Shown one piece after another: positions 8,531-62,704 of a DNA stretch of 64,000 nucleotides (the first letter of the stretch is position 1; every line of letters begins with the position of its first letter). The translations under genes were made by a program, and so were the position numbers. The notes beneath the pieces are model-generated. The model saw nothing but the letters and a program-made list of their open reading frames with translations. It had not been told where the DNA came from and did not search any database. Source of the stretch: an uncultured Candidatus Saccharibacteria bacterium (lineage in GTDB: Bacteria > Patescibacteriota > Minisyncoccia > Phycocordibacterales > DATDWN01); assembly GCA_964576615.1 (NCBI GenBank), contig CAZNUU010000002.1, positions 27,428-91,427 of the forward strand, in the 5' to 3' direction.

Positions 8531-8683
8531 ACTTTATGTATTATCAGTCAATATATTAGTTCAGAGGATTTTTGGTCGAGTTCAAGGCGCGAGTGAGCAA
8601 TGCGACCAAGCTGTATAGAAATACTGCGCGTGGAGCATGCGGAGCGAGCAACGCAGAAATCGGGCAAAAAGACCTGAACTAAT

Positions 8684-10933
8684 TTATTTTGCTACAGCGA
8701 TTGCTTCATCAAAAGCAACGCTAAGTAATTTCGATCCACCCTGTGAGCCCATAGTCACCCCATACAAAACTCCAGCTCGAGACATTGTTTCGCGGTTGTG
8801 GGTTATGACAATTAGTTGTGACTTGTTTGCTAAATTTTCCACCATATCTCCGTATTTTTTTGAGTTGGCCTCATCGAGCGCTGCGTCTGTTTCGTCGAGA
8901 ATAATAAAAGGCGGTGGATTCACCTGAGAAATTGCAAAAAGAAGCGCAATGGATGTAAGCGCCCTCTCCCCGCCAGAGAGCATCATTAGGCCTTTTACTT
9001 TTTTCTTGGGTAGGCTGACGTCAATATCTATGCCCTCTTCTGATTCCTCAACTTCCTCTAATTCTTCTTGTCCATCCTCCAGAAGTTCATCGACTTCTTT
9101 TTTTCTACGCTTCACCGGCTGACTTACCGAGAGTCTCGCCTCCCCGCCACCAAACATAAGTTTGAAATATTCATTAAACTGATCATTTATTTTCTCTATG
9201 CCAGACTTAAATTCGGTAGACAATTTGTCCTCAAGATCTTTTATAAGCAAAGTGAGAGAGCCCGCGGACTTCGCCAAATCTCCCAGTTCTCTCTCCAAAA
9301 ATGTGTCTCTCTCATTTGCTTCCGTAAACTCCTTCATAACGTCCGCTTCCCCAATCCCACCCGCATCTTCCAGACGAATTTTTATTTTCTCTATCCTCTT
9401 GCGCCTCTCCTCTTGCTTCGACCTATCTTCATCCAAATCAGTTATTTCCAATTTCTTGTAACTTAAAGCAACAGTGCCGAGTAAAATACCAAGCTCTTGC
9501 AGCTCTCTTTTAAAATCTTCCTGCACAAGCCGCAAATTCTCCTCCTCAGCTGCAAGAACTTGAAGTTTGCTTCTCACTTCCCCTGACTGCGCCATAACCC
9601 GAAACACTGCTTTCTCCGCATCGCGATTCTTATCTTTTTCTTTTTCGATTGTTTCCTTGAGTCTCTGATACTGCCCGGAAAGCTCCGTTTCTTTCTTTTT
9701 TATTTCCTCGAGGGATTTCTCTATTTTTCTTTTGGCATCCCGCAAATTCTCAATCTCCTTTTTACTGTCATCTAACAAAGTCATGTCTACATTTTCTTTG
9801 TTCTGATGAATGAACTCAGAGAGCAGCGCGGCCACTTGGTCCAAGGCTCGTGTTAAGCTTTCGATGTCTTTACTTTCTCTCACACTTTTTATCTTAGCTT
9901 CAATCTGCCCCGACAAACTCTCCACAGAAACCAAGGTTACCGTTTTGTGCTCGTAGGATTTTGCCACATCCTCTTGCTTTTTAACCATTTTAGCAAGTGA
10001 GCTGAGCTCGCCATCTATCCGACCGAAATCCCGAAATAAATTATCTTTGTCATCTCGAACTTTATGTAAATTATTTTCTAAAGCAATTAGCTCTTCTGAC
10101 TTTTCATCCTTACCTTTGGCCTTTTCCAAATGCGTCTTAGCCTCATCCAGTTCTTTATCGAGCTTTTTCTCCTCCTGCGCCAATGGATCTTTTTCTTCTT
10201 GGATTTTTTTTGTTGTCTTATTTATGTACTCCTCCTCGCGCTTCAAATACTCCAGAGCTTCCTTTTCCAAATCTCCCTTCATTTCTATAGTTTTTTGAAC
10301 CTTCTCAACTTGCTTTTTTAGAAATTTTAAATGCGGCGCGATTTCTTTGCGCAGAGACGCCACTTGGTCTATATTTTCTCGAGTTTTCTCTAACTTTCTT
10401 TCACTTTCATTCTTTTTATATTGAAAAAGCTTGAGCCCGAGCGCATCCTCGATCATCGTTTTCCTCTCTTTTATAGATGCGTTTAAAATTCTATCTGCCT
10501 CACCCTGCGAAATAATATGATGCCCGGAGGAACCGATGTGCGCGCTAGCGAGAAGCTCGACAATATCTTTGAGCCTCACTTGAGAACCATTTATAAGGTA
10601 CTCATTTACCGAGTCCCTGTGCACCACTCGCTCGAGAGTAACCGATTCATAATCAATCGGCAGAAATTTAGACGTATTATCAAATATAACCTTAACCGCG
10701 GCTCGATTTGCTTTGGGCAAATCCCCTGCGCCATTAAAAATGAGATCCTCTCCTTTTTTACCGCGCAGAGATTTGATTGATTGTTCACCTAAGACAAACC
10801 TAAATGCTTCCGCCACATTGGATTTACCCGAGCCATTCGGCCCAACTATAGCTGTAACCTTGGAGGTGAAATTGAGTTCTGCTTTTTTAGCAAAAGATTT
10901 AAAACCGGAAAGTTCGATGCTCTTCAAGTACAT
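8684..10933 (-). CDS. smc: Chromosome segregation protein SMC, unusually short (749 aa)
   Basis: N-terminal Walker A GPNGSGKSN, long coiled coils, C-terminal LSGGERALTSIALLFAI...FIILDETDAALD. Confidence 0.85.
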   Translation of the reverse strand: MYLKSIELSGFKSFAKKAELNFTSKVTAIVGPNGSGKSNVAEAFRFVLGEQSIKSLRGKKGEDLIFNGAGDLPKANRAAVKVIFDNTSKFLPIDYESVTLERVVHRDSVNEYLINGSQVRLKDIVELLASAHIGSSGHHIISQGEADRILNASIKERKTMIEDALGLKLFQYKKNESERKLEKTRENIDQVASLRKEIAPHLKFLKKQVEKVQKTIEMKGDLEKEALEYLKREEEYINKTTKKIQEEKDPLAQEEKKLDKELDEAKTHLEKAKGKDEKSEELIALENNLHKVRDDKDNLFRDFGRIDGELSSLAKMVKKQEDVAKSYEHKTVTLVSVESLSGQIEAKIKSVRESKDIESLTRALDQVAALLSEFIHQNKENVDMTLLDDSKKEIENLRDAKRKIEKSLEEIKKKETELSGQYQRLKETIEKEKDKNRDAEKAVFRVMAQSGEVRSKLQVLAAEEENLRLVQEDFKRELQELGILLGTVALSYKKLEITDLDEDRSKQEERRKRIEKIKIRLEDAGGIGEADVMKEFTEANERDTFLERELGDLAKSAGSLTLLIKDLEDKLSTEFKSGIEKINDQFNEYFKLMFGGGEARLSVSQPVKRRKKEVDELLEDGQEELEEVEESEEGIDIDVSLPKKKVKGLMMLSGGERALTSIALLFAISQVNPPPFIILDETDAALDEANSKKYGDMVENLANKSQLIVITHNRETMSRAGVLYGVTMGSQGGSKLLSVAFDEAIAVAK

Positions 10934-11461: not shown

Positions 11462-12151
11462 CTACTCCCAGCCTCGAGATTTTAGGGCCTTCTGTGCTGC
11501 CTCCTGTTCAGCCTCTTGTTTAGAATCGCCTTCGCCTGTCGCAATTAGATCTTTGCCTACGTAAACACCAACTGTAAATTTCTTTTTGTGATCTAAACCA
11601 GATTCCTTAACTGTTTTATAAACTGGAGTAATACCATCAAATTCTTGGGCTTTCTCTTGAAAAAGAGATTTGGCATCAATAAATTTTTTGCCAGAAATAA
11701 TATTATCTATGAGCGGAGTAAAATGCTTATGTATAAAATCTGTCGCAGTTTTTAAACCTTGATCAATATAAATTGCACCAATTAATGCCTCGAGAGCGTT
11801 TGCCAAAATATACTGCCTCGCCCGGCCAGTGTCTTTTGATTCGCCTTTTGATAATAAAAGATAATCTGACATTCCCAATTCCTTGGCAATTTCTGCACAG
11901 GTGTCTGCATTGACTAGAGCCGAACGATAAGCAGTTAAATCGCCTTCTGGTTTTGTTGGAAATTTTTTGTAGAGAAAATCTGTGGTCACAAGCTCCAAGA
12001 CAGCGTCGCCCAAAAATTCGAGGCGCTCATTATGCGAGAGTCCAGAATTTCTATTTTCGTTTATAAATGAACGATGAACAAAGGCTTGTTTTAAAACATC
12101 TTTATCTTTGAAATTTATACCTATTTTTTTTTCGAATTTTGAGTAATCCAT
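11462..12151 (-). CDS. rnc: Ribonuclease III
   Basis: ERLEFLGDAVLELV RNase III signature, C-terminal dsRBD. Confidence 0.9.
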   Translation of the reverse strand: MDYSKFEKKIGINFKDKDVLKQAFVHRSFINENRNSGLSHNERLEFLGDAVLELVTTDFLYKKFPTKPEGDLTAYRSALVNADTCAEIAKELGMSDYLLLSKGESKDTGRARQYILANALEALIGAIYIDQGLKTATDFIHKHFTPLIDNIISGKKFIDAKSLFQEKAQEFDGITPVYKTVKESGLDHKKKFTVGVYVGKDLIATGEGDSKQEAEQEAAQKALKSRGWE

Positions 12152-12310
12152 CTTTTAATAATACCGCTAGATACGGCTAAGTCACTGTAAAACTTTCAGA
12201 TTTGGATGTAATTCGAGGCGAAATGTAAAAAAGAATTCGAGCCTTACAAACTCGTAAGGTGAGGATTATTTTTGACATTTCAACGAAGAAGTACGCCAAA
12301 TGTGGAAGTT

Positions 12311-13213
12311 TTACTTTTTAAGCAGAACATTTATCGCCTTGGTGACTAGAGGTAGAATATCATTATAGAAGTTAAGGTCAAGGATATCTGCAAGCTTAAA
12401 CCATTTTGCGTCGTCTAAGCCGCCTTTGACCTCCGGATGCAGATCCTGAAACTTGGCCTCCGCAATAAAATAAGTAACATGCTTTTTTACCTTGCCCTTT
12501 TCTGGGTGATAGGATATATATTCATTTTCACCCAGCTTTTCTTTTATTTTTATATCAATACCTAACTCTTCTTTTATTTCTCTTATCGTCCCCTCTTCCA
12601 CGGTCTCTTCTTTTGTCTCGGGACTATCACCTATTTTGCCTTTAGACAGTGTCCAGCGACCAAAAACATCGTGAACCAAGGCTAAATAAATTTCGTCACC
12701 CTCTTTGGCATAAACAACTGCTCCTCCCAAATACTCATTGGTCACATGCCCGTTTTTGTGTTTGCGATCTTTAGAGCTTTGGTCCTTGCCTGGTTCACCC
12801 AGTTCTTTGTAAACAGCGCCTAGAACACCATTTACGAATTTACTAGATGTATCGGAGCCAAATGTTTTGGATAGTTCAATTGCCTCGTTTATTGCTACCT
12901 TGGGAGGTACTTCGTTTCTATTGGCAAACAAAAGTTCCCACAGCCCAATTCTCAAGATATTTCTATCGACAATACTTATTTTACTTATCGGCCAATCCGG
13001 TGCAGCTTTTTCGATAATTAAATCTATATCTCTTTTTTTATCCAGTACACCGTTAAGGAGATTCTCCATAAAGGAGAGGTCTGCATGACCAGGCGCAAAT
13101 TCATCTACATTTCTTTTGAAAATTTCTTTTACCTCTTTTGAGCTCTTGGAACCGAAATCCCATTCAAAAAGAGTTTGAAGAACTATGGATCTGGAAAGAT
13201 GCCGATTTGCCAT
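12311..13213 (-). CDS. nusB: NusB antitermination factor fused to a C-terminal Nudix hydrolase domain
   Basis: 300 aa. N-terminus SIVLQTLFEWDF...NRNILRIGLWELLF is NusB-like. C-terminus carries Nudix box GTIREIKEELGI. Confidence 0.7.
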   Translation of the reverse strand: MANRHLSRSIVLQTLFEWDFGSKSSKEVKEIFKRNVDEFAPGHADLSFMENLLNGVLDKKRDIDLIIEKAAPDWPISKISIVDRNILRIGLWELLFANRNEVPPKVAINEAIELSKTFGSDTSSKFVNGVLGAVYKELGEPGKDQSSKDRKHKNGHVTNEYLGGAVVYAKEGDEIYLALVHDVFGRWTLSKGKIGDSPETKEETVEEGTIREIKEELGIDIKIKEKLGENEYISYHPEKGKVKKHVTYFIAEAKFQDLHPEVKGGLDDAKWFKLADILDLNFYNDILPLVTKAINVLLKK

Positions 13214-15524: not shown

Positions 15525-18500
15525 ATGTCGAAATTTACTCACCTCCACACTCATTCCCACTATTCTCTTTTGAATGCTCTGCCTAAAATTCCTGATCTTG
15601 TCTCTGAGGCAAAAAAGAGCGGAATGACTTCACTTGCCTTAACTGACAATTGCAATCTGTATGGAGCAATTGAATTTTTTAAAGAGTGTAAAAAAAAGGA
15701 AATAAAACCAATAATTGGTATTGATGCATATGTGGCATATCGCTCAAGACAAGACAAACAAGCTGGAATTGATAAAGAAAGGTATCGTCTAATACTTCTT
15801 GCAAAAAATGACACTGGTTACAAAAATTTAATAAAATTAGTCACCCTCGCCCATCTCGAAGGTTTTTACTACAAACCTCGCGTAGACAAAGAACTTCTAG
15901 AAAAATATTCCGAAGGACTAATTGCTATTTCCCCTTCCTTTTCTGGGGATATTGTTCAATCACTCAAATTGGCAAACGAAAACCAAGCTTTGGAGAGATT
16001 GGATTGGTATAGAAAGACATTTAAAGATGGTAGTGATGGCCCAAATTTTTATTTAGAAATTACTCATCACCCCGAAATGAAGGGTCATGAGGAGACGATA
16101 AAAAAAATCGTTGCATTCGCCCGAAAAACGAAGACTCCCCTGGTTGCCGCTCACGATGTTTATTATTTAAATCCCGAAGATAAAATTGCCAGACAGACCC
16201 TAATTGCAATTCAGTCTCAAAACGATGAAAAAATCGAAATAACAGAGGAAGATTTTTCTTTTATCTCCCCGAAACAAGCGGAAAAATTATTTAAAAACGA
16301 GCCAGATGCCATTGAGAACATAGAAAAAATTGTTGAGCGTTGCAATTTAGAAATTTCCATCGGGAAATGGTTTCTTCCTCCTTTCGAAATCAAAGGCCAA
16401 AGCCACGATGAGGCATTTAGAAAAATGGTTTTAGAGGGTCTCAAGAAGAGAAATTTAAAAAACACCAAAGAGATAGAAGATAGAATTGAATACGAGTTAA
16501 AAATTATTACGGACAAGGGCTACTCACCTTATTTTTTAGTCGTGGCGGATCTTCTTAACTTTGCTCATACCAACGGAATCCTCACCACAACCAGAGGCTC
16601 AGCGGCAGGCTCTCTTGCCAGTTATCTTTCTGGAATTACTAATGTAAACCCAATTTTTTATAATTTGCCGTTTGAAAGATTTCTAAACCCTGAGAGACCC
16701 AGCGCACCAGATATTGACATGGATTTTGCAGATACTAGACGAGGCGAAATAATCGAGTATGCCAAAAGAAAATATGGAGAAAATCGGGTAGCTCAAATTG
16801 GAACATTTGGTACTATGGCCGCACGCGGTTCAGTACGTGATGTAACTCGTGCCTTGGGTTTTCCTTACACCCTGGGAGATCAGATTGCTAAGTTAATTCC
16901 AATGGGTGCTCAAGGTTTCCCAATGACAATCGAAAGAGCCATGAAAGAAGAGCCTGACCTTAAAACACTGTATCAAAGCAACTCAGATGTAAAAAATATT
17001 ATTGATATGGCAAAAAAGATCGAGGGTTGTGCAAGACACATTTCGGTTCATGCTGCGGGCATGGTTATTGCACCAACCGAATTAACTGATTTTGTAGCTC
17101 TGCAATACGATACCAAGGGCGATAACAATATCATCACTCAATACGACATGCATTCAATCGGTGAAGACGGAGCAGGACTTTTAAAATTTGACATTCTGGG
17201 TATACGTAACCTCTCTATCTTGGCGGATGCGGTCAAGCGGGTGAAAAAAATTGAAGGTCTAGATATTGATGTGGAAAATGTGCCAATTGATGATAAAAAG
17301 ACTTTCGAAATGCTGGCTCGCGGCGAAACTGAAGGGTTATTTCAATTAAACGGCGATGGTATGACCAGGTCTCTCATGGAACTTAAGCCGACAGTTATTT
17401 TCGACATTAACCTTATGGTGGCACTTTATCGACCTGGACCAATGGAAAATATCCAGGAGTATATTAAAAGAAAGCATGGTCAAAAACCTGTAACTTACAT
17501 TCATCCAAAAATGAAAAGCTTTTTGGATAAAACTTATGGAGTATTGGTTTACCAAGATGATCTTATTTTAACTGCAATTGAAGTGGCAGGTTACAGTTGG
17601 GGCGAGGCAGATAAATTTAGAAAGGCTGTTGGTAAAAAAATCCCAGAAGAAATGGCCAAGCAACACGTTAAGTTCGTGGAAGGTTGTGTTAAAAACGGCG
17701 GCATGACTGAAAAAGCCGCGGAGGATTTATGGAAACTCTTTGAACCTTTCCAGGGTTACGGCTTTAACAAAGCGCACGCTGCAAGTTACGGTAAAGTCGC
17801 TTACCAAACTGCCTACATGAAAGCACACTTCCCCGCTATTTACATGTCCGCTGTGCTCACCGCAGAATCTGGGGATGTTGAGACTGTAGCAATCATGATA
17901 AATGAATGTAAGAGACTGGGCATTCCAGTTCTACCACCCGACATAAATTATTCCTTTGAAGGTTTTGGGGTAAATAAGGCTCAAAAAAGTGGGGCTAAAC
18001 CGAGCGATAACTCGGTCGCCCGATCCAGTGAAGCTGGATTTAGGGAGAAAGATACAATCAGATTTGGATTAACCACAATAAAAAACTTTGGGGAGGGAGT
18101 GGGAACATCGATTGTAGAAGAGAGAAAGAAAAATGGGCCATTCAAATCTCTATCTGATTTTTTGACTCGCATAAAAGACAAAAACTTAAACAAGAAATCA
18201 CTCGAATCACTGATAAAATCTGGGGCTATGGACTCGTTTGGGGATAGAAATCTGCTCCTCCATAACTTAGATCGTCTGCTTCAATTCAACAAGGAACAGC
18301 GTGGGAAGGAGTCTGAGCAAGATTCTTTATTCGGAAATTTGGGCGAGAGTGTCAAAGCTGCTGACATTCACCTTGAGAGAGCTGAAAACACAACTTTAGG
18401 TAACAAACTGATGTGGGAAAAAGAACTCCTAGGGTTATACATTTCTGGACATCCACTGGAGAGTTTTAAAAGTAAACTTGAAGCAAAAACTAGTATCAAA

Positions 18501-18773
18501 AACATAAAAGAGAAAACAAAAGAACGAGATCCTGTGGTGGTAGGTGGAATCATAGAAGAAATGAAAAGTACTTTGACCAAAAGTGGGGATAAAATGGTTT
18601 TTCTTAAAATCGCTGACCTGTCGGACTCAATCGAAGCGGTTGCCTTTCCAAAAATATTCGAAGAATTTAAGGACATTTTAATCGCCGAGAATTGTGTGGT
18701 TATAAAAGGTACACTTTCAACTAGAAATGGGGGTAAATCAATTCTGGTGGATAAAGTAAAAATGATGGAGTAA
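15525..18773 (+). CDS. dnaE: DNA polymerase III alpha subunit, with in-frame mini-element insertion
   Basis: 1082 aa, PHP domain HLHTHSHYSLL. Insert peptide AKPSDNSVARSSEAGFREKD is encoded by the element at 17983-18035. Confidence 0.95.
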   Translation: MSKFTHLHTHSHYSLLNALPKIPDLVSEAKKSGMTSLALTDNCNLYGAIEFFKECKKKEIKPIIGIDAYVAYRSRQDKQAGIDKERYRLILLAKNDTGYKNLIKLVTLAHLEGFYYKPRVDKELLEKYSEGLIAISPSFSGDIVQSLKLANENQALERLDWYRKTFKDGSDGPNFYLEITHHPEMKGHEETIKKIVAFARKTKTPLVAAHDVYYLNPEDKIARQTLIAIQSQNDEKIEITEEDFSFISPKQAEKLFKNEPDAIENIEKIVERCNLEISIGKWFLPPFEIKGQSHDEAFRKMVLEGLKKRNLKNTKEIEDRIEYELKIITDKGYSPYFLVVADLLNFAHTNGILTTTRGSAAGSLASYLSGITNVNPIFYNLPFERFLNPERPSAPDIDMDFADTRRGEIIEYAKRKYGENRVAQIGTFGTMAARGSVRDVTRALGFPYTLGDQIAKLIPMGAQGFPMTIERAMKEEPDLKTLYQSNSDVKNIIDMAKKIEGCARHISVHAAGMVIAPTELTDFVALQYDTKGDNNIITQYDMHSIGEDGAGLLKFDILGIRNLSILADAVKRVKKIEGLDIDVENVPIDDKKTFEMLARGETEGLFQLNGDGMTRSLMELKPTVIFDINLMVALYRPGPMENIQEYIKRKHGQKPVTYIHPKMKSFLDKTYGVLVYQDDLILTAIEVAGYSWGEADKFRKAVGKKIPEEMAKQHVKFVEGCVKNGGMTEKAAEDLWKLFEPFQGYGFNKAHAASYGKVAYQTAYMKAHFPAIYMSAVLTAESGDVETVAIMINECKRLGIPVLPPDINYSFEGFGVNKAQKSGAKPSDNSVARSSEAGFREKDTIRFGLTTIKNFGEGVGTSIVEERKKNGPFKSLSDFLTRIKDKNLNKKSLESLIKSGAMDSFGDRNLLLHNLDRLLQFNKEQRGKESEQDSLFGNLGESVKAADIHLERAENTTLGNKLMWEKELLGLYISGHPLESFKSKLEAKTSIKNIKEKTKERDPVVVGGIIEEMKSTLTKSGDKMVFLKIADLSDSIEAVAFPKIFEEFKDILIAENCVVIKGTLSTRNGGKSILVDKVKMME
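17983..18035. repeat. Mini-element family I, copy 3 (reverse orientation), in-frame in dnaE
   Basis: ggctaaaccgagcgataactcggtcgcccgatccagtgaagctggatttaggg is the reverse complement of copy 1 over ~30 nt. Encodes the same ARSSEAGFREK peptide as the helicase copy. Confidence 0.75.
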
Positions 18774-18784
18774 ACGTTTCATAG

Positions 18785-18923
18785 GTAATCTCCGAAAAAA
18801 CACTCGGCTTCTCCAGCGGAAGCCTCGTTCGGTACTCGACGCCTCGTTGTCAAGAGCCTCTCGCTTGCTCGAGGTCATTGACAACGCCATGCTCGGCGTC
18901 TGCGTATGTTTTTCGGAGATTAC
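18785..18923. repeat. Large nested palindrome immediately downstream of dnaE
   Basis: Perfect 15-bp terminal inverted repeat gtaatctccgaaaaa / tttttcggagattac. Inner palindromes gacgcc..ttgtcaa / ttgacaa..ggcgtc and ggcttc/gaagcc. Confidence 0.7.
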
Positions 18924-19041
18924 TTCTTACACTTGTGGTTAGGGAAGCATGTGCTATGTTTTAAAATAATGAATTTGGTTAAAAGTTGTAATAAGAAAAG
19001 ATCTCGCACTGACACGATACGAGATCTTGTCTTGTGCGAGA

Positions 19042-19752: not shown

Positions 19753-19779
19753 GTTCGAAGGTTGTTTTTCCTCAAACAA

Positions 19780-19813
19780 ATTAACGGCCCTCGAACAGAG
19801 GGTCGTTAATTTT
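19780..19813 (+). terminator. Attenuator terminator in the thrS leader (12-bp stem + TTTTT)
   Basis: ttaacggccctc-gaaca-gagggtcgttaa-ttttt. Upstream segment agttcgaagg (19751-19760) can pair with ccctcgaac as an antiterminator. Confidence 0.6.
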
Positions 19814-30361: not shown

Positions 30362-30408
30362 TGCTTTAATTCTATCAAAATAACGAAGTCTTGAATCCAG
30401 TGTTTTAT

Positions 30409-30483
30409 GGACCTTGCGAGCTCGACGTAGCGAGCACGAGGAATTTTTCAGCAGAAAAATATCCGTGTCCAGAAAACTCTGGG
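30409..30483. repeat. Repeat family B, copy 2, embedded in a longer hairpin (flanking inverted repeat taacgaagtc / gacttcgtta)
   Basis: Reverse complement matches 3284-3356 core cacggatatttttctgctgaaaaattcctcgtgctc exactly. Confidence 0.85.
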
Positions 30484-30496
30484 TGATAAGACTTCG

Positions 30497-30769
30497 TTAT
30501 TTTTTACCCTTCTTCGAACTAGCAGCTTTTGCAACCCTAGCCTTAAACTTCTCAGCTCTTCCAGCTGTATCTAGATTCTTCTCTTGACCAGTGTAAAAGG
30601 GATGTGAGGCACTTGAGATTTCAAGTCTATATAGAGGGTACTTCTTGCCATCTTTTGCTTTACCCTCCTCCTTTGTCTCTACTACAGAGGAAATAATAAA
30701 TTCAGCCCCATTGGAGTTATCCAGGAAGAGGACTGGTCTGTAGTTTTTAGGATGTATATCTTTTTTCAT
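30497..30769 (-). CDS. rpmE: 50S ribosomal protein L31 (type B)
   Basis: MKKDIHPKNYRPVLF. Confidence 0.85.
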   Translation of the reverse strand: MKKDIHPKNYRPVLFLDNSNGAEFIISSVVETKEEGKAKDGKKYPLYRLEISSASHPFYTGQEKNLDTAGRAEKFKARVAKAASSKKGKK

Positions 30770-35478: not shown

Positions 35479-35545
35479 TGCGCTAGTATATAGAAAAGAG
35501 TTTAAAAAATCAACTTATTAGGATTCCGTTGAGCCGTATCTTGAA

Positions 35546-35620
35546 AAAAGCCTTTCGCAGGTGAGAAGCGAAGGCGACGAGAAGTTCGCTGGGCGAGCCC
35601 GCCCAGATAGATTGCTTTTT
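35546..35620. repeat. Repeat family A, copy 3 (with 5-nt internal insertion)
   Basis: aagcctttcgcaggtgagaagcgaaggcgacgagaagttcgctgggcgagcccgcccagatagattgctttt. Confidence 0.85.
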
Positions 35621-35644
35621 GAAAGATATGGCGAGTAAGGAATC

Positions 35645-36511
35645 CTACAAATTATTAAAGAATCTAAGTTTCTTCTCAACCACATCCTGCACTGCCTTAA
35701 CTGCTGGTTTTAAAAACTTGTATGGTGCAACTTCGTCTGGATTCTCTAGGAGACCTTTTTGTAACCCTTGTTTGTAAGCTAGCCTTATTTCAGTGTTTAT
35801 GTGAACAATTGAGATGCCGTTTGCAATACTGCCTTTAAAATCTTCCTCCGAATTACCTGAACCGCCATGAAGTACAAGTGGAATACCAACTGCCCCTTTA
35901 ATTTGTTTAACTCTTTCGACGTTTAATTTTGGATCTACTCCCGAGCGAAGCATGCCGTGAAAATTTCCCACCGCCGGTGCTAGCATATCTACCCCAGTTT
36001 CAGTTACAAACTCTCTGGCTTTTTCGGGATTTGTTAAAGACTCTTCATCTAGTTTGACTCCCTCCGGAATTGCATCTAGAACTTTGGAAGATGTGCCGAT
36101 GTAACCGAGCTCCCCCTCTACGATTACTTCTGGATTAGTTTTACGTGCGTATTCCACACACATCTTGGTAACTTTGACATTTTCTTCAAAGGAGAGTTTG
36201 GATCCATCATAAATAACTGAATCTACTCCCGCATTTATGGCTTCTACGACTCGTTCAAAAGAATAAGTGTGATCCGCATTTATATAAATCGGATATTGAA
36301 ATTCTTCGCGCACACTTTTGACCAACGCCACAGCTTGATTCAGGCCGATAAAATCTCTCTCTCCCTCTGAAACACCTATGATCACGGGAACATTTAAACC
36401 TTGAGCCGCCTTAAATACTCCCCATAAACCTTCGACATTAGAAATATTGAAATGGCCTACTGCAACTTTATTTCTCTCTGCTTCTTTAACACATTCCCGA
36501 AGAGTTTTCAT
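35645..36511 (-). CDS. fba: Class II fructose-bisphosphate aldolase
   Basis: VGHFNISN...HGGSG...class II FBA/tagatose-bisphosphate aldolase motifs. Confidence 0.9.
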   Translation of the reverse strand: MKTLRECVKEAERNKVAVGHFNISNVEGLWGVFKAAQGLNVPVIIGVSEGERDFIGLNQAVALVKSVREEFQYPIYINADHTYSFERVVEAINAGVDSVIYDGSKLSFEENVKVTKMCVEYARKTNPEVIVEGELGYIGTSSKVLDAIPEGVKLDEESLTNPEKAREFVTETGVDMLAPAVGNFHGMLRSGVDPKLNVERVKQIKGAVGIPLVLHGGSGNSEEDFKGSIANGISIVHINTEIRLAYKQGLQKGLLENPDEVAPYKFLKPAVKAVQDVVEKKLRFFNNL

Positions 36512-39677: not shown

Positions 39678-40577
39678 TTACTCATGTTCGCTTGTTATTT
39701 GCCCACCAAGTGTCCTTAACTCTCGCAAAGCAATTTTGGCTTGCTCGTCCTTTGGTGGCTCGCCTTTCATTTCTGTCCCCGGTGGTGAGCCATGCCACTT
39801 ATAATCCCTTTCCATAAAATCAACTCCCTTCCCAGGAATAGTCCTCGCAATAATTATAGACGGCCCATCAAAAACCGCCTGAGCACGTGCAACCGCGGAG
39901 ACAATTTCTTGGTAATCATGGCCGTTTATTTCTTGCACATGCCAATTAAAAGCCTCTAATTTATGATTTATGGGATCAAGCGGCATGACATCTTCTGTAT
40001 TGCCCTCGATCTGAATATTATTTCGATCCATTATGACAATGAGATTGCCGAGTTTGTGTTTTGCCGCAAGCATAGCTGCTTCCCAACTATTGCCCTCTTG
40101 CCATTCCGCATCAGAAGTAAGGCAATAAAAAAATCTATCCGATGTTTTGCCTCTATCCATCCTATCGGCTAGCGCCATTCCCACTGCTTGAGAAAGCCCG
40201 CAACCCAGCGGCCCGGAACTAGTCTCCAGCATCGGCAAATACTCTCTGTGCGGATGGCCTTGTAGGCGCGAACCAAATTTCCGAAGAGTCAAAAGTTCGG
40301 AAACAGGAAAGTACCCACTATGAGCCATGGTGGAATACAAAACAGGGTTAATATGGCCATTAGATAAAACTAACCTGTCGCGCTCCGGCCAAGAAGGATT
40401 TTTGGGATCATGGCGTAAAATAAAAAAATAAAGCGTTGCAAAAATATCCGCCATGCCTAGTGGACCGGCAGAGTGCCCCGATCCAGCAGCTACAAGCATT
40501 TCAATAATAGAGATACGGATTTGCTTAGCTTTTTCCGTAAGAAACTTTAAATTTTCATCTGTTAAGTTACTTGTCAT
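39678..40577 (-). CDS. Transketolase, N-terminal (TPP-binding) subunit
   Basis: 299 aa, TPP-binding GDG-type motif region. Confidence 0.9.
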   Translation of the reverse strand: MTSNLTDENLKFLTEKAKQIRISIIEMLVAAGSGHSAGPLGMADIFATLYFFILRHDPKNPSWPERDRLVLSNGHINPVLYSTMAHSGYFPVSELLTLRKFGSRLQGHPHREYLPMLETSSGPLGCGLSQAVGMALADRMDRGKTSDRFFYCLTSDAEWQEGNSWEAAMLAAKHKLGNLIVIMDRNNIQIEGNTEDVMPLDPINHKLEAFNWHVQEINGHDYQEIVSAVARAQAVFDGPSIIIARTIPGKGVDFMERDYKWHGSPPGTEMKGEPPKDEQAKIALRELRTLGGQITSEHE

Positions 40578-41247
40578 TGAAATGTTCTAGGCGATAAAAT
40601 TCCTCCTCCGGATTTGCCGCATTTAAAATAGCTCCACCGGAGACCAACTTATCTGCCCCGGCAGATACCAAGAGATCTTCAGTCTCTTCAATTACTCCAA
40701 TATCAATACTAATTATACGTTCGGGATAGAGAGCCTGCAACGATTTGATTTTCTCGACAGCTTTAGGGTCCAAATGAACCCCGTGCCTCCCCAACGAGTC
40801 AGACCCCATGACTTGGATAAAATCTACCCGAGTCACGAGTGGTTTTATCTTTTCGATATCAGTTGAGGGCTTGATAGCAACACCAACCGATACATCATTT
40901 TCACGACAAAGATCAATTACTTTTTGAAAATTTTCTGTCGCTTCAATATGAGCCACAATACTGGATACTCCTGTACGAACCCAATTAGAAATAATATTCT
41001 CGGGAGATTTGACCATGAGATGTAGCTCAATATCGACCTCCTGCCAGCGAGGCCAACCGATATTTTCTTTTTTTAGGTCTTCGAAATAATCCTCGTCCTC
41101 CCCGTTATATGGCCAAGTCTTGATCGGTGTAAAAATCCCATCCGAAATATCTACCTGAACCAGGTTCGCGAAAGCAGCAACCTTATTTATTTCTTCTTCG
41201 AGCTGTTCCTTATTTTCGGGAATTATTGCTGGTACAACTTTAATCAT
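40567..41247 (-). CDS. rpe: Ribulose-phosphate 3-epimerase
   Basis: Rpe family with ~25 aa insertion. Overlaps the tkt start by 11 nt. Confidence 0.8.
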   Translation of the reverse strand: MIKVVPAIIPENKEQLEEEINKVAAFANLVQVDISDGIFTPIKTWPYNGEDEDYFEDLKKENIGWPRWQEVDIELHLMVKSPENIISNWVRTGVSSIVAHIEATENFQKVIDLCRENDVSVGVAIKPSTDIEKIKPLVTRVDFIQVMGSDSLGRHGVHLDPKAVEKIKSLQALYPERIISIDIGVIEETEDLLVSAGADKLVSGGAILNAANPEEEFYRLEHFNDK

Positions 41248-41260
41248 ATTTTACTGCTGA

Positions 41261-41423
41261 AATTTTTCTAATTTTATTATTTTTAGAACATCCGCAGGCC
41301 GCAAGCATGGTTCTGTCAACGTCCGAGCTTGCTTGGCTCATTGACAGATTGCGGCCGAGGACCGAATGAACCTTTTCGCTGGAAAAGATTCATGTTTCTA
41401 AAAATAATAAAATTAGAAAAATT
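41261..41423. repeat. 165-bp long hairpin/MITE-like palindrome between rpiB and rpe
   Basis: ~31-bp AT-rich terminal inverted repeat aatttttctaattttattatttttagaacat / atgtttctaaaaataataaaattagaaaaatt, enclosing GC-rich inner palindromes ggccgcaa/ttgcggcc and ctgtcaac/ttgacag. Confidence 0.75.
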
Positions 41424-41868
41424 AATCATACTTTTCAATCTTTTTAATTCTCCTCACGTGTCGCTCGTCCTCTGTAAATTGTGTCTTAAGCCACAATAGA
41501 ACTGCTTCTTTTGCTTCAGTTGTTGTAACGAAGTTAGCTCCGATTGCTAAAATATTCGCATCATTGTGCTCACGGGAAAGAGTAATTGTGTGTTTTGTTC
41601 CACCATAAAAAACTGCACAGCGCACATTTGGAAAACGATTGGCAACCATTGCCTCCCCCTGACCGGAGTAGCCCGCGACAATACCTTTTATTTTAGGATC
41701 TCTAGAGACGGCCTCGGCTACACGAGAAATATAGTCTGGGTAATCATCATCATGCTGATATTTTTCTGGACCACGATCGTAAACCTCGTAATTATTCTGT
41801 AAAAGAAAAGTTGTTAAATCTTGTTTTAACTGAAACCCGGCATGATCTGACGCGATATAAATCTTCAT
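41422..41868 (-). CDS. rpiB: Ribose-5-phosphate isomerase B
   Basis: MKIYIASDHAGFQLKQ. Confidence 0.9.
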   Translation of the reverse strand: MKIYIASDHAGFQLKQDLTTFLLQNNYEVYDRGPEKYQHDDDYPDYISRVAEAVSRDPKIKGIVAGYSGQGEAMVANRFPNVRCAVFYGGTKHTITLSREHNDANILAIGANFVTTTEAKEAVLLWLKTQFTEDERHVRRIKKIEKYD

Positions 41869-61143: not shown

Positions 61144-62007
61144 CTACCACCCACCAGAAGATCCCCCACCCCCAGATCCGCCGCCCCCAAAGCCACCAAA
61201 CCCCCCGCCGCCGGATCCAAAACCTCCACCGCCTCCAGTAAAGAACCACCACCCTCGACTTCCTGACTTTTTATACCTTTCATACGATCTAGATACGAGG
61301 AAATCTAGTAGCAGGCCGAGAAGAACAAAAAAAATAAGCAAAATTCCACCAAAGAATAGTGCTAGACCTAAAGCCCATGCGACCACAAACCCGACCACAC
61401 CTCCAACGATTCCACCTCCCCACCAAGATTTTGACCTAGCCAGGATCGATGTGATTATTTGAAAAGCAAAAATTGAAAAGAAAATAATAAACTGCAAAAC
61501 CCCAGAATTTGATTTGGAATAATTCTCTGGCACAATCTCCGTGCCACCCAAAGCGGAAATCATTTTATCCACCGCGCCATTTATTCCTCCATAGTAGTCC
61601 CCTTGTCGAAAGGCTGGAGCAATAATGTCACTTTGAATATACGATGTGCCGATGTCTGTTAGATCTCCTTCTACGCCATAGCCAGTATGGATCCTAGTTT
61701 TTCTATCAGAGAGAGAAATGAGAAGCAGTACTCCATTATTTTTGTCTTTTTTTCCTATACCCCATTTTGTAAAGATATTTTGAGCAACGTTTTCTATTGT
61801 GTCACCGTCGAGCGATGGAATTGTTACAACTGCTATTTCGTTTGTACTTTGTCTTTCATAGTTTTCTAGTTTTGCCTCGAGCGTAGAAACTTGCTCAGAA
61901 GTCAGCATCTTCGCGTAATCCTGAACAAATCCAGTTGGACGAGTCGGCACAGTAAAAGCCATTGCTACCGTAGGCAGAAGTAGAAGTGGAATTAGGAGTT
62001 TTTTCAT
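61144..62007 (-). CDS. TPM-domain (YgcG-like) protein with Gly-rich C-terminal tail
   Basis: Signal peptide, TPM/DUF477 core, TM, tail GGGGGFGSGGGGFGGFGGGGSGGGGSSGGW. Confidence 0.75.
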   Translation of the reverse strand: MKKLLIPLLLLPTVAMAFTVPTRPTGFVQDYAKMLTSEQVSTLEAKLENYERQSTNEIAVVTIPSLDGDTIENVAQNIFTKWGIGKKDKNNGVLLLISLSDRKTRIHTGYGVEGDLTDIGTSYIQSDIIAPAFRQGDYYGGINGAVDKMISALGGTEIVPENYSKSNSGVLQFIIFFSIFAFQIITSILARSKSWWGGGIVGGVVGFVVAWALGLALFFGGILLIFFVLLGLLLDFLVSRSYERYKKSGSRGWWFFTGGGGGFGSGGGGFGGFGGGGSGGGGSSGGW

Positions 62008-62027
62008 AATTTATTCTCGAGCCATGT

Positions 62028-62108
62028 CTTGAAGAGAGACTTGCGAGCGCGACTGGCGCGAGCACGAGGAAAATTTTAGCAAAAATTTATCCGTGCTCTC
62101 TGAGAGAT
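62028..62108. repeat. Repeat family B, copy 3, flanked by 10-bp inverted repeat attctcgagc / gctcgagaat
   Basis: Reverse complement aligns to 3284-3356 (gagcacggata..tttttgct.aaaattttcctcgtgctcgcgccagtcgcgctc). Confidence 0.85.
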
Positions 62109-62119
62109 ATGCTCGAGAA

Positions 62120-62704
62120 TTAAAAATTAACTTTTGGAGCTTGCTGATTTTCTGTCGGCACATTGAAATACTCATGAGCAGTAAAACCATACCAACCCGC
62201 GAGAATTGATGTTGGGAATGTCTTTACTTTTGTGTCGTAAACTCGGACCAGGTCGTTGTACTTCATTCTTTCAACTGAGATTCTATTCTCTGTACCTTCG
62301 AGAGATACCATAAGATCCCGGAAAGCCTGGCTAGACTGAAGTGTTGGATAGTTCTCTGCGATGACTAAAAGTCTCCCCAATGCTGACTCAACTTGGGTTG
62401 CTGCTGCCGCCTTCTGATCTGTTGTTTGCGCACCAGAGTACCTTGTCCTAGCTTCAGCAATTTGGCCAAATAAAGTTTGTTCCTGTTTTGCTACACCTTT
62501 CACAGTAGCTTCTAGATTTGGGATCAAATCAAAGCGCCTTTGATACTGGTTTTCCACCTGCGCCCACTGTGCTGTGATTTGCTCACCAGCACGGACAAAA
62601 TAGTTGTATGTTGATACTGCCCAACCGACAATAAGTAAAACGACAACCAAAACTATTATCCAAACCCTGTTTCTTTGCCAAAAATTTGTTGCTTGTGGTT
62701 CCAT
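62120..62704 (-). CDS. lemA: LemA family protein
   Basis: N-terminal TM and LemA core NYFVRAGEQI...RRFDLIPNL. Confidence 0.8.
   Translation of the reverse strand: MEPQATNFWQRNRVWIIVLVVVLLIVGWAVSTYNYFVRAGEQITAQWAQVENQYQRRFDLIPNLEATVKGVAKQEQTLFGQIAEARTRYSGAQTTDQKAAAATQVESALGRLLVIAENYPTLQSSQAFRDLMVSLEGTENRISVERMKYNDLVRVYDTKVKTFPTSILAGWYGFTAHEYFNVPTENQQAPKVNF

Follow-up and report, generated by a model that had tools for sequence, protein, structure and literature searches.

Long palindromes at gene junctions of a candidate phyla radiation genome as candidate copies of structure-dependent dispersed repeats

Introduction

In the Correia elements of Neisseria (CREE, nemis), a single terminal repeat of 26 bp is conserved; the elements also show a TA duplication and contain an IHF site. 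Pneumococcal BOX and enterobacterial ERIC/IRU elements are short, non-coding, intergenic and transcribed and are predicted to fold into stable RNA, BOX being modular, and the repetitive extragenic palindromes (REPs) measure about 20–35 nt, have a head of the GTAG type that is conserved, and depend on a RAYT gene. Rickettsia palindromic elements (RPEs) also insert in frame into genes. In sponge mitochondria, GC-rich repetitive hairpin-forming elements (RHE) have repeatedly invaded spacers in AT-rich genomes (PMC2800124), and PMC2649163 describes the hairpin RNA of the Correia element as bound or cleaved by RNase III. Here we analyse a stretch of 64,000 nt from contig CAZNUU010000002.1 (hereafter the window), which contains three long palindromes: E3 between rpiB and rpe, E2 downstream of dnaE, and E1 between the divergent genes for ribosomal protein S16 (rpsP) and RNase R (rnr).

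Our preferred reading, to which we assign a probability of about 0.5, is that E3 and E2 belong to a single family, F3, whose copies are non-coding, structure-dependent dispersed repeats of about 110–160 nt at gene junctions of this Paceibacterota genome, a member of the candidate phyla radiation (CPR), and of its relatives. A sequence-only reading of the window had proposed that the three palindromes are unrelated to each other and represent miniature inverted-repeat transposable elements (MITEs), strong bidirectional terminators or structured regulatory RNAs.

Results

Two of the three palindromes share one fold

The window has a GC content of 41%, and the next relatives of its organism, about 75% identical in DnaE, bear the source labels Paceibacterota, Zambryskibacteria, Minisyncoccia and Parcubacteria, all of them CPR. 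Elements were collected from an inverted-repeat list and by reading and folding the intergenic regions, followed by BLAST and nhmmer over related loci (given below by their L numbers). For the families F1 to F6 the comparison set comprised roughly 290 kb of related DNA from nine further assemblies, or 12 loci counting the window. Genes were named by synteny with annotated relatives, namely S16/rpsP and RNase R (from L126, L127, L134 and L135) and RNase III (from the Pfam-annotated L125 and L126).

All three palindromes are present at the sites and in the gene contexts first reported for them (Table 1), and the fold of each, a long rod or a branched hairpin, is far more stable than those of shuffled sequences. 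Among 200 dinucleotide-preserving shuffles per element, none reached the observed RNA folding energy of −71.1 kcal/mol for E3 (z = −9.85), −63.9 kcal/mol for E1 (z = −8.15) or −58.8 kcal/mol for E2 (z = −5.72); chance palindromes are ruled out by these z-scores and by the recurrence of the families described below. Arm length had been given correctly for E2 (15 bp), too short for E1 (18 bp instead of 21 bp) and too long for E3 (~31 bp instead of 28 bp of perfect pairing), and the description of E3 as AT-rich arms around a GC-rich inner part is borne out by GC contents of 7% in the arms and 53% in the core. E3 occupies a 174-nt spacer: its arm starts with the AA that belongs to the rpiB stop codon, and 13 nt separate its other end from the rpe ATG. 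E2 starts 11 nt past the dnaE stop, with a terminator-like palindrome (18998–19028) downstream of it. Besides its arms, E1 has a further stem of 12 bp (GTGAGTACCCAG / CACCTGGGTTACTCA); its core is AT-rich, and a promoter-like site (5506–5478, −) would put the element in the rpsP 5′ leader.

Contrary to the description of the palindromes as unrelated, E2(+) and E3(−) are homologous: a both-strand alignment matches them through the whole core, and both match L130:6276–6421 in BLAST (E = 8e-24 for E3 and 2.5e-13 for E2). In their common architecture, stem P1 closes the element, hairpin P2 has a CAGC/CCAGCG loop, UCGGUNCUCG forms the junction, the long and GC-rich hairpin P3 contains the internal loop ACCAUGCU (ACCAUGC), and CUGCGNAUG precedes the 3′ arm of P1. 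Together with CUUUUCCAGCGAAAAG, the latter three sequences form the conserved motifs of the family, and E2 and E3 carry all of its defining features. Covariance model R1 scores E3 at 148.7 bits and E2 at 126.8 bits, both being training sequences of the model. By R1 and nhmmer, F3 occurs in at least five other CPR assemblies, i.e. L120/L124 (a metagenome-assembled genome labelled Candidatus Saccharibacteria), L123, L125, L130 (two copies) and L134; independently of the model, BLAST also links E2 to L123 (E = 2e-14) and F3 to L125.

On a six-sequence alignment of F3 (A2), RNAalifold returned a three-way junction. Standard pairs make up 92.3% of the pair cells of this alignment, compared with 71.8% in shuffles and 40–49% with slid partners, and 26 of 44 pairs change on both sides; none of 500 shuffles reaches any of these measures. 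All eight F3 copies lie sense to the gene directly upstream, 0–26 nt past its stop codon. This gene is rpiB for two copies and pheT for another two; dnaE, the gene for the N-terminal part of transketolase and two unnamed genes precede one copy each. F3 is retained at the same junction across genomes both at rpiB–rpe (window and L130) and after pheT (L125 and L134). Strand asymmetry is weak in this family, with 16 G.U pairs vs 10 on the complement. A G.U pair at the base of P3 in four of the six sequences, which is an A.C mismatch on the opposite strand, favours the sense strand, and the reverse strand folds slightly better in five of six copies.

The short-read contigs L001 (1688–1763) and L123 (1–106) both end inside F3 copies. 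Because repeats tend to break assemblies, these contig ends suggest that F3-type repeats do so in CPR genomes.

E1 has no relative in the roughly 290 kb of related DNA and no match to model R1. It shares the architectural style of the other elements and is an orphan without detectable relatives. The sequence-only reading would have taken palindromes unique in their genome for plain terminators; E2 and E3 are multi-copy and recur in several genomes, which leaves E1 as the one palindrome without a second copy.

Table 1. Elements in the window and copies of the same families in related loci. Coordinates refer to the window unless a locus is named.
Element	Family	Coordinates	Strand	Details and location
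E1		5291..5475	.	185 nt; perfect inverted repeat 21 bp, 5291-5311/5455-5475; divergent S16 (rpsP) / RNase R spacer
E2	F3	18785..18923	+	perfect inverted repeat 15 bp (P1), 18785-18799/18909-18923; after dnaE (15525..18773, +)
E2 P2	F3	18806..18824		loop CCAGC
E2 P3	F3	18832..18907
E3	F3	41261..41423	-	perfect inverted repeat 28 bp (P1), 41261-41288/41396-41423; between LacAB_rpiB (41422..41868, -) and ribulose-phosphate 3-epimerase rpe (40567..41247, -)
E3 P2	F3	41393..41366	-	12-bp stem, CAGC loop; then junction UCG
E3 P3	F3	41362..41290	-	long GC-rich hairpin; internal loop ACCAUGC
E4	F1	30377..30503	+ (more stable strand)	between L31 (rpmE) and RF1 (prfA); 16-bp perfect arms, arm overlaps L31 stop codon
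E5	F1	62003..62130	+	between LemA and TPM-phosphatase genes; arms overlap stop codon of one gene and start codon of the next
E9	F1	3259..3377	-	adjoins F2a, downstream of trmD
F2a	F2	3138..3261	+	core AAAAGCCTTTCGCAGG..GCGACGAGAAGTTCGCTGGGCGAGCCCGCCTAGATAGATTGCTTTT
F2b	F2	7509..7632	-	starts on RNase R stop codon
F2c	F2	35519..35647	+	between fructose-bisphosphate aldolase and L25 (rplY)
E6	F4	12187..12314	+	between RNase III and nusB; termini TAAAACTTYCAAATYTGG conserved, core GAGCCTTAC..GTAAGGTGA
E7	F6	8550..8688	+	abuts SMC stop codon
Relatives of E7	F6	L132:15598-15755, L132:3247-3392
Copies elsewhere	F1			L123, L126, L127, L131, L132, L134; partial in L135
Copies elsewhere	F2			L123 (two copies), L134 (two copies)
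Copies elsewhere	F4			ten copies, in L126, L127, L131, L132
Copies elsewhere	F5			none in window; L131, L133, L134

Several families occupy the gene junctions

The three palindromes are not the only ones of their kind, as at least eight further elements of the same style are present. In total, the window holds at least 11 elements of 119–185 nt each, which fall into at least five families (F1, F2, F3, F4 and F6) and the orphan E1. The eleven elements sum to 1,505 nt. They cover 2.4% of the window, and their share of its non-coding DNA is about 23%. The comparison set contains about 42 copies of F1–F6, every one of them intergenic and abutting or overlapping stop or start codons. F3 is one of at least six modular families (F1–F6) at gene junctions of the window genome and its relatives; modularity is seen, for example, in F5, which bears an F1-like hairpin module. 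In L123, two F2 cores are 99% identical over 99 nt and have different flanking arms, which indicates a recent copy and suggests that what is copied is the core. The numbers of copies and the taxonomic range of the families are lower bounds, with one loose and one strict scan pattern: the contig pattern TCCAGCGN{6,14}TTCGGTNCTCG gave at least 120 matches, all of which except L120 look like chance in GC-rich genomes, and the 23-base metagenome pattern found L123 and L124 only.

Members of different families often stand side by side in one spacer, such as F2a and E9 downstream of trmD in the window, and F1 and F5 upstream of rplY in L131 (16381–16476 and 16507–16715).

Synteny around dnaE and rpiB–rpe is conserved in the relatives that were fetched, and the same junctions can therefore be compared across genomes. 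At rpiB–rpe, F3 is found in the window and, in the same orientation, in L130; the spacer measures 2 nt in L132 and is an AT-rich 108 nt in L131. The junction between the N- and C-terminal transketolase genes is 18 nt long and free of elements in the window, and carries F3 in L130 and F4 in L131 and L132. Between rnc and nusB, F4 in the window corresponds to F1 in L126 and L134, a partial F1 in L135 and a spacer of 36 nt in L127, and the element following SMC is F6 in the window and F4 in L126 and L127. F1 occupies the L31–prfA junction in the window and L132, where L130 and L131 have ordinary terminators; after trmD, F2 lies in opposite orientations in the window and L134. The rpsP–rnr spacer, which is 242 nt in the window with E1, measures 57–65 nt in L126, L134 and L135. 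This pattern shows that repeated insertion and/or loss is needed and that the elements are not tied to particular genes.

In the Zambryskibacteria-like L127 (520–1000; also in L128), the rpsP–rnr spacer is a highly structured stretch of 480 nt with 49% GC and a folding energy of −145 kcal/mol, annotated as a 95-aa open reading frame (ORF) without Pfam match. The spacer from dnaE to a threonyl-type tRNA synthetase gene in the same locus (L127:13205–13473) has a large fold ending in a terminator-like hairpin and may be a candidate T-box-type leader.

Outer arms are specific to each copy

The outer arms of F1–F3 copies are unrelated between copies and perfect within each (28, 24, 21, 18, 16 and 15 bp). 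They are AT-rich, the cores GC-rich, and they reach as far as the stop and start codons of the neighbouring genes or overlap these. Similar termini were seen only in F4, and in F2 within the window; the outer repeats of the L123 copies of F2, of F1 and of F3 are unrelated. The extreme ends of F2 covary (AGATTTC/GAAATCT, AAATATC/GATATTT and GGATTCC/GGAATCC). Ends of F2 and F4 read TA...TA, which is either a TA duplication or part of the palindrome itself.

The ordinary terminators of the window are also unusually long palindromes. Those at 4463–4501 and 53005–53040 have 15–17 bp of perfect pairing, in which an A-tract pairs with a T-tract (e.g. TAAATCAAAAGATCCGC / GCGGATCTTTTGATTTA), and further long examples lie at 19778–19812 (15 bp with one mismatch) and 18998–19028 (12 pairs). 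These palindromes resemble the outer arms of some repeat elements minus the core.

One strand is consistently more stable in F1, F2 and F4

In three of the families the more stable strand is the same in all copies scored, i.e. in 8/8 copies of F1 plus a further copy in L134, in 5/5 copies of F2 plus the copy at L134:8819–8978, and in 11/11 copies of F4, with a gap of 4 to 22 kcal/mol between the strands. The stable strand is richer in G.U pairs than its complement (18 vs 3 in F1, 13 vs 3 in F2 and 37 vs 10 in F4). G.U pairs exceed A.C mismatches about 3:1, and one G.U pair of F4 is kept in 10 of 11 copies. Compensatory changes affect 31 of 45 pairs in F4, where 92.0% of the cells are paired, and 22 of 35 pairs in F1. 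Compensatory evolution and strand-specific wobble pairs together show that it is a single-stranded fold that is being maintained. Conservation is about the same in paired as in unpaired columns (roughly 0.6); the classical RNA signature of conserved loops and variable stems was not seen, and such even conservation looks more like that of a repeat family than that of classical riboswitches or ribozymes.

Relative to the flanking genes, the structured strand can face either way: four copies of F1 point one way and four the other, F2 has three and four copies in the two orientations (counting two L134 copies), and in F4 the structured strand is antisense in seven copies, sense in two and within convergent spacers in three. 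On the sense strand, a scan for terminators found nothing at either E2 or E3; its sole match at these elements is antisense, on the P2 hairpin of E2. The closing stem is not followed by a T-run in E1, E2 or E3. The core of F4 (GUGAUGA, with GA/GA beside the conserved G.U) allows a speculative reading as a K-turn or box-C-like motif.

At the gathering threshold, Rfam matched four tRNAs and none of the elements in the whole window, and only chance matches to long hairpins appeared at E≤1 (whole window) and E≤10 (E3). Identity as tRNA or tmRNA was rejected, as were hammerhead, twister, pistol and hatchet ribozymes, for which E3 has no Rfam match at E≤10. Apart from a single chance match in coding sequence (L129), scans of viral contigs for the cores of F2 and F1 were negative, and BLAST of E3 against phages and plasmids returned one chance AT-rich match and nothing else.

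Discussion

We rate the palindromes of the window as small palindromic intergenic repeats, a known kind of element, in a phylum for which we found no such description: the literature searched on CPR/Parcubacteria repeats, MITEs, hairpins and structured RNA motifs did not contain these elements. With CREE they share a length of 100–160 bp, intergenic placement, terminal inverted repeats around a conserved core, multiple copies, presence or absence between genomes and probable co-transcription with their neighbours. They differ from CREE in the copy-specific arms of F1–F3, the covarying ends, the lack of an unambiguous duplication and the branched core with compensatory evolution. By analogy, the RNase III precedent of the Correia elements is the functional model adopted here. 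Like BOX and ERIC, the elements are short intergenic units with a predicted fold which occur in both orientations, and F1 and F5 are modular; unlike these, they lie in CPR hosts, several families coexist, and no similarity in sequence is apparent. To our knowledge, long copy-specific perfect outer arms and a consistent G.U asymmetry of one strand are not features of BOX or ERIC.

Hairpin-forming intergenic units in which structure matters, which lack classical terminal repeats and target duplications and which act as single strands are also known from REP/REPIN-RAYT systems and from palindrome-associated elements derived from IS200/IS605; here, however, the units are branched cores of 100 nt, and no RAYT, TnpA or Y1/HUH gene was present among the 30 ORFs scanned. 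The sponge RHE and the RPEs parallel our elements as GC-rich hairpins of several families in the short spacers of small, AT-rich, streamlined genomes. Their hosts are of another type, and every copy found here is intergenic, in contrast to the in-frame insertion of RPEs into genes. Integron attC sites, finally, are imperfect palindromes of 60–140 nt directly past stop codons, conserved in structure and strand-specific. In contrast to attC, our elements lack R''/R' core sites (E1–E4 and F4 ends), an integrase and a cassette array, they are flanked by syntenic housekeeping genes, and their cores are conserved in sequence within families. Structure-based ends, a wobble bias of one strand and copy-specific perfect arms are features that the known kinds of repeats leave unexplained.

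The reading as dispersed repeats is favoured because of the many copies, the modular families, the turnover at junctions, the occurrence in both orientations (F1 and F2 relative to flanking genes, with F2 flipped at the trmD junction between the window and L134), the intergenic placement and the uniform conservation. The conserved unit would be the GC-rich core in its single-stranded fold, which in F3 is a three-way junction. Judging from the occupancy pattern, different lineages appear to have gained and lost this unit, each at other junctions. It would end up enclosed in a long, perfect, copy-specific AT-rich inverted repeat that reaches the neighbouring stop or start codons. The best explanation for such an outer repeat is a process at the level of DNA that draws on local sequence, which could be hairpin-templated (quasi-palindrome) extension or correction. 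Alternatively, the core may land in the apex of an existing terminator-like palindrome; the terminators of the window genome are themselves perfect palindromes of 15–17 bp. Elements located inside operons are, for that reason, probably co-transcribed. As RNA, their perfect stems of 15–28 bp (28 bp in E3, 21 bp in E1 and 15 bp in E2, where a CREE-like substrate calls for some 20 bp or more) would offer double-stranded substrates to RNase III, which is encoded in the window (rnc, 11462..12151) and whose cutting would punctuate or destabilise polycistronic mRNAs, as with the Correia elements of Neisseria.

Several observations weigh against this interpretation. Of the three options of the sequence-only reading, MITE-like is the nearest, yet the features that define MITEs were not found. 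The elements do form short, non-coding, multi-copy families with variable occupancy of orthologous sites (E1 alone has no second copy). Terminal inverted repeats conserved among copies were not found; those of F1–F3 covary, unlike MITE ends recognised by a transposase. No target-site duplication was seen at E1, E2, E3 or E4, and neither the 30 window ORFs (Pfam) nor the annotated loci of relatives include a transposase, HUH enzyme or reverse transcriptase. A transposon of double-stranded DNA does not predict the stability and G.U bias of one strand. Gain and loss are deduced from distant genomes (DnaE about 75% identical), and the steps of transcription, RNase III cleavage and arm templating are predictions. 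Moreover, F3 lies sense to its upstream gene in eight of eight copies, and two pairs of genomes each have it at one shared junction, which an RNA selected by the host fits at least as well.

A role as structured RNA is accordingly a serious rival for F3. F3, and perhaps other families, could be a cis-acting module of 3′ untranslated or intercistronic regions, a new ribozyme or a protein-binding RNA that is kept by selection; the sense-strand fold would aid the operon in processing, in protection of 3′ ends or in uncoupling of cistrons, and the many copies would reflect reuse instead of selfish spread. Apart from the placement past stop codons and the retention at rpiB–rpe and after pheT in distant genomes, such a role is in line with the strong covariation of F3, the G.U pair at the base of P3, the four conserved motifs, and the F4 G.U pair kept in 10 of 11 copies and flanked by GA/GA, which we take to resemble a tandem sheared G.A motif. 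It is harder to reconcile with unpaired columns that are no better conserved than paired ones, with the slightly better fold of the reverse strand in five of six F3 copies, and with F1, F2 and F4, which occur in both orientations and often have the structured strand antisense to the operon without a promoter of its own. One junction can also hold different families in different genomes, rpiB–rpe is free of elements in close relatives, and no Rfam family, small ribozymes included, was matched. We consider this explanation possible, although on balance it is rather unlikely. It can coexist with a mobile origin if a mobile element was domesticated. In its narrower form, the suggestion from the sequence-only reading that E3 is a regulatory RNA of rpe did not survive: an rpe leader or gene-specific riboswitch is contradicted by F3 copies that follow dnaE, pheT, the transketolase N-terminal gene and others.

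We regard it as improbable that the elements are substrates of single-strand recombination or transposition, recognised as folded single-stranded DNA in the manner of attC, REP/REPIN-RAYT or the ends of IS200/IS605. Such recognition would explain why structure and not sequence is conserved and why the strands are asymmetric, and it agrees with termini that covary, with a structured strand that is specific to each family and independent of gene orientation, with the absence of target-site duplications and, in F1–F3, of conserved terminal repeats, and with the attC-like placement right past stop codons. However, the flanks are housekeeping genes in conserved synteny and not cassettes, RYYYAAC/GTTRRRY core sites are absent from the ends, and no integrase, RAYT or TnpA was found in the ORFs and loci examined. 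Both orientations at one junction are also unlike strand-directed insertion by HUH enzymes, although inversion through the arms could still yield them.

Independent genes for small RNAs, each with its own promoter, are very improbable. Each family does have a defined more stable strand with G.U pairs; in 30 copies, however, neither a sigma-70-like promoter was seen upstream of the structured strand nor a terminator or U-tract downstream, and the same window shows what such signals look like around two other RNAs at 45.2–45.9 kb, with perfect 12/12 promoters and U-tract terminators. The least credible alternative is that the palindromes are plain, strong bidirectional intrinsic terminators that are merely long, for although they form stable hairpins directly past stop codons, some arms resemble a split A-tract/T-tract (L123 F2, AAAAACCGATAGG...CCTATCGGTTTTT; E4, AAAATAACG...CGTTATTTT) and the ordinary terminators of this genome are likewise long perfect palindromes, the stems lack a U-tract, compact ordinary terminators exist elsewhere, E3 lies inside the conserved gap-rpiB-rpe-tkt operon where L132 leaves 2 nt between rpiB and rpe, and terminators do not share conserved cores of 100 nt between genomes and unrelated junctions.

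The two RNAs just mentioned (45230–45500 and 45572–45905, +) are unannotated, structured and apparently paralogous, with the common motifs TTGGCACAATG and TTAGCCACA. They occupy a 755-nt gap between two large minus-strand genes for proteins of 725–735 aa (42944–45151 and 45907–48084), one with a weak AAA_5 match and the other without Pfam match. Both have a TTGACA-17-TATAAT promoter in which a TG extends the −10, and the end of each is formed by a GC-rich hairpin and a T-run; no Rfam match even at E≤5 and no homologue in the related loci was found.

A more far-reaching proposal, which we offer tentatively and hold to be doubtful, is that F1–F6 make up a superfamily specific to the CPR, whose members are structured nucleic acids (small RNAs or single-stranded DNAs) that are mobile and strand-specific. 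Their fold rather than their ends would be propagated, and they would home into the apices of intergenic palindromes or into gene junctions without a classical transposase. Some of them, e.g. F3, might have been domesticated as RNA-processing modules or as a new class of self-cleaving or protein-binding RNA.

CPR/Patescibacteria genomes are among the most streamlined in bacteria. In the 64-kb stretch analysed here, about a quarter of the non-coding DNA consists of structured repeats of several families that recur across genera and have no Rfam match. If these repeats are mobile, they would be a previously unlisted component of the mobilome with an apparently structure-based mechanism, and in practice one reason why contigs break in CPR assemblies. 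As RNA modules of the host, they would point to a widespread RNase III-type or structure-based punctuation of operons in organisms with few known regulators. The covariance models provide a handle for the annotation of many intergenic regions of the CPR as well as RNAs to examine.

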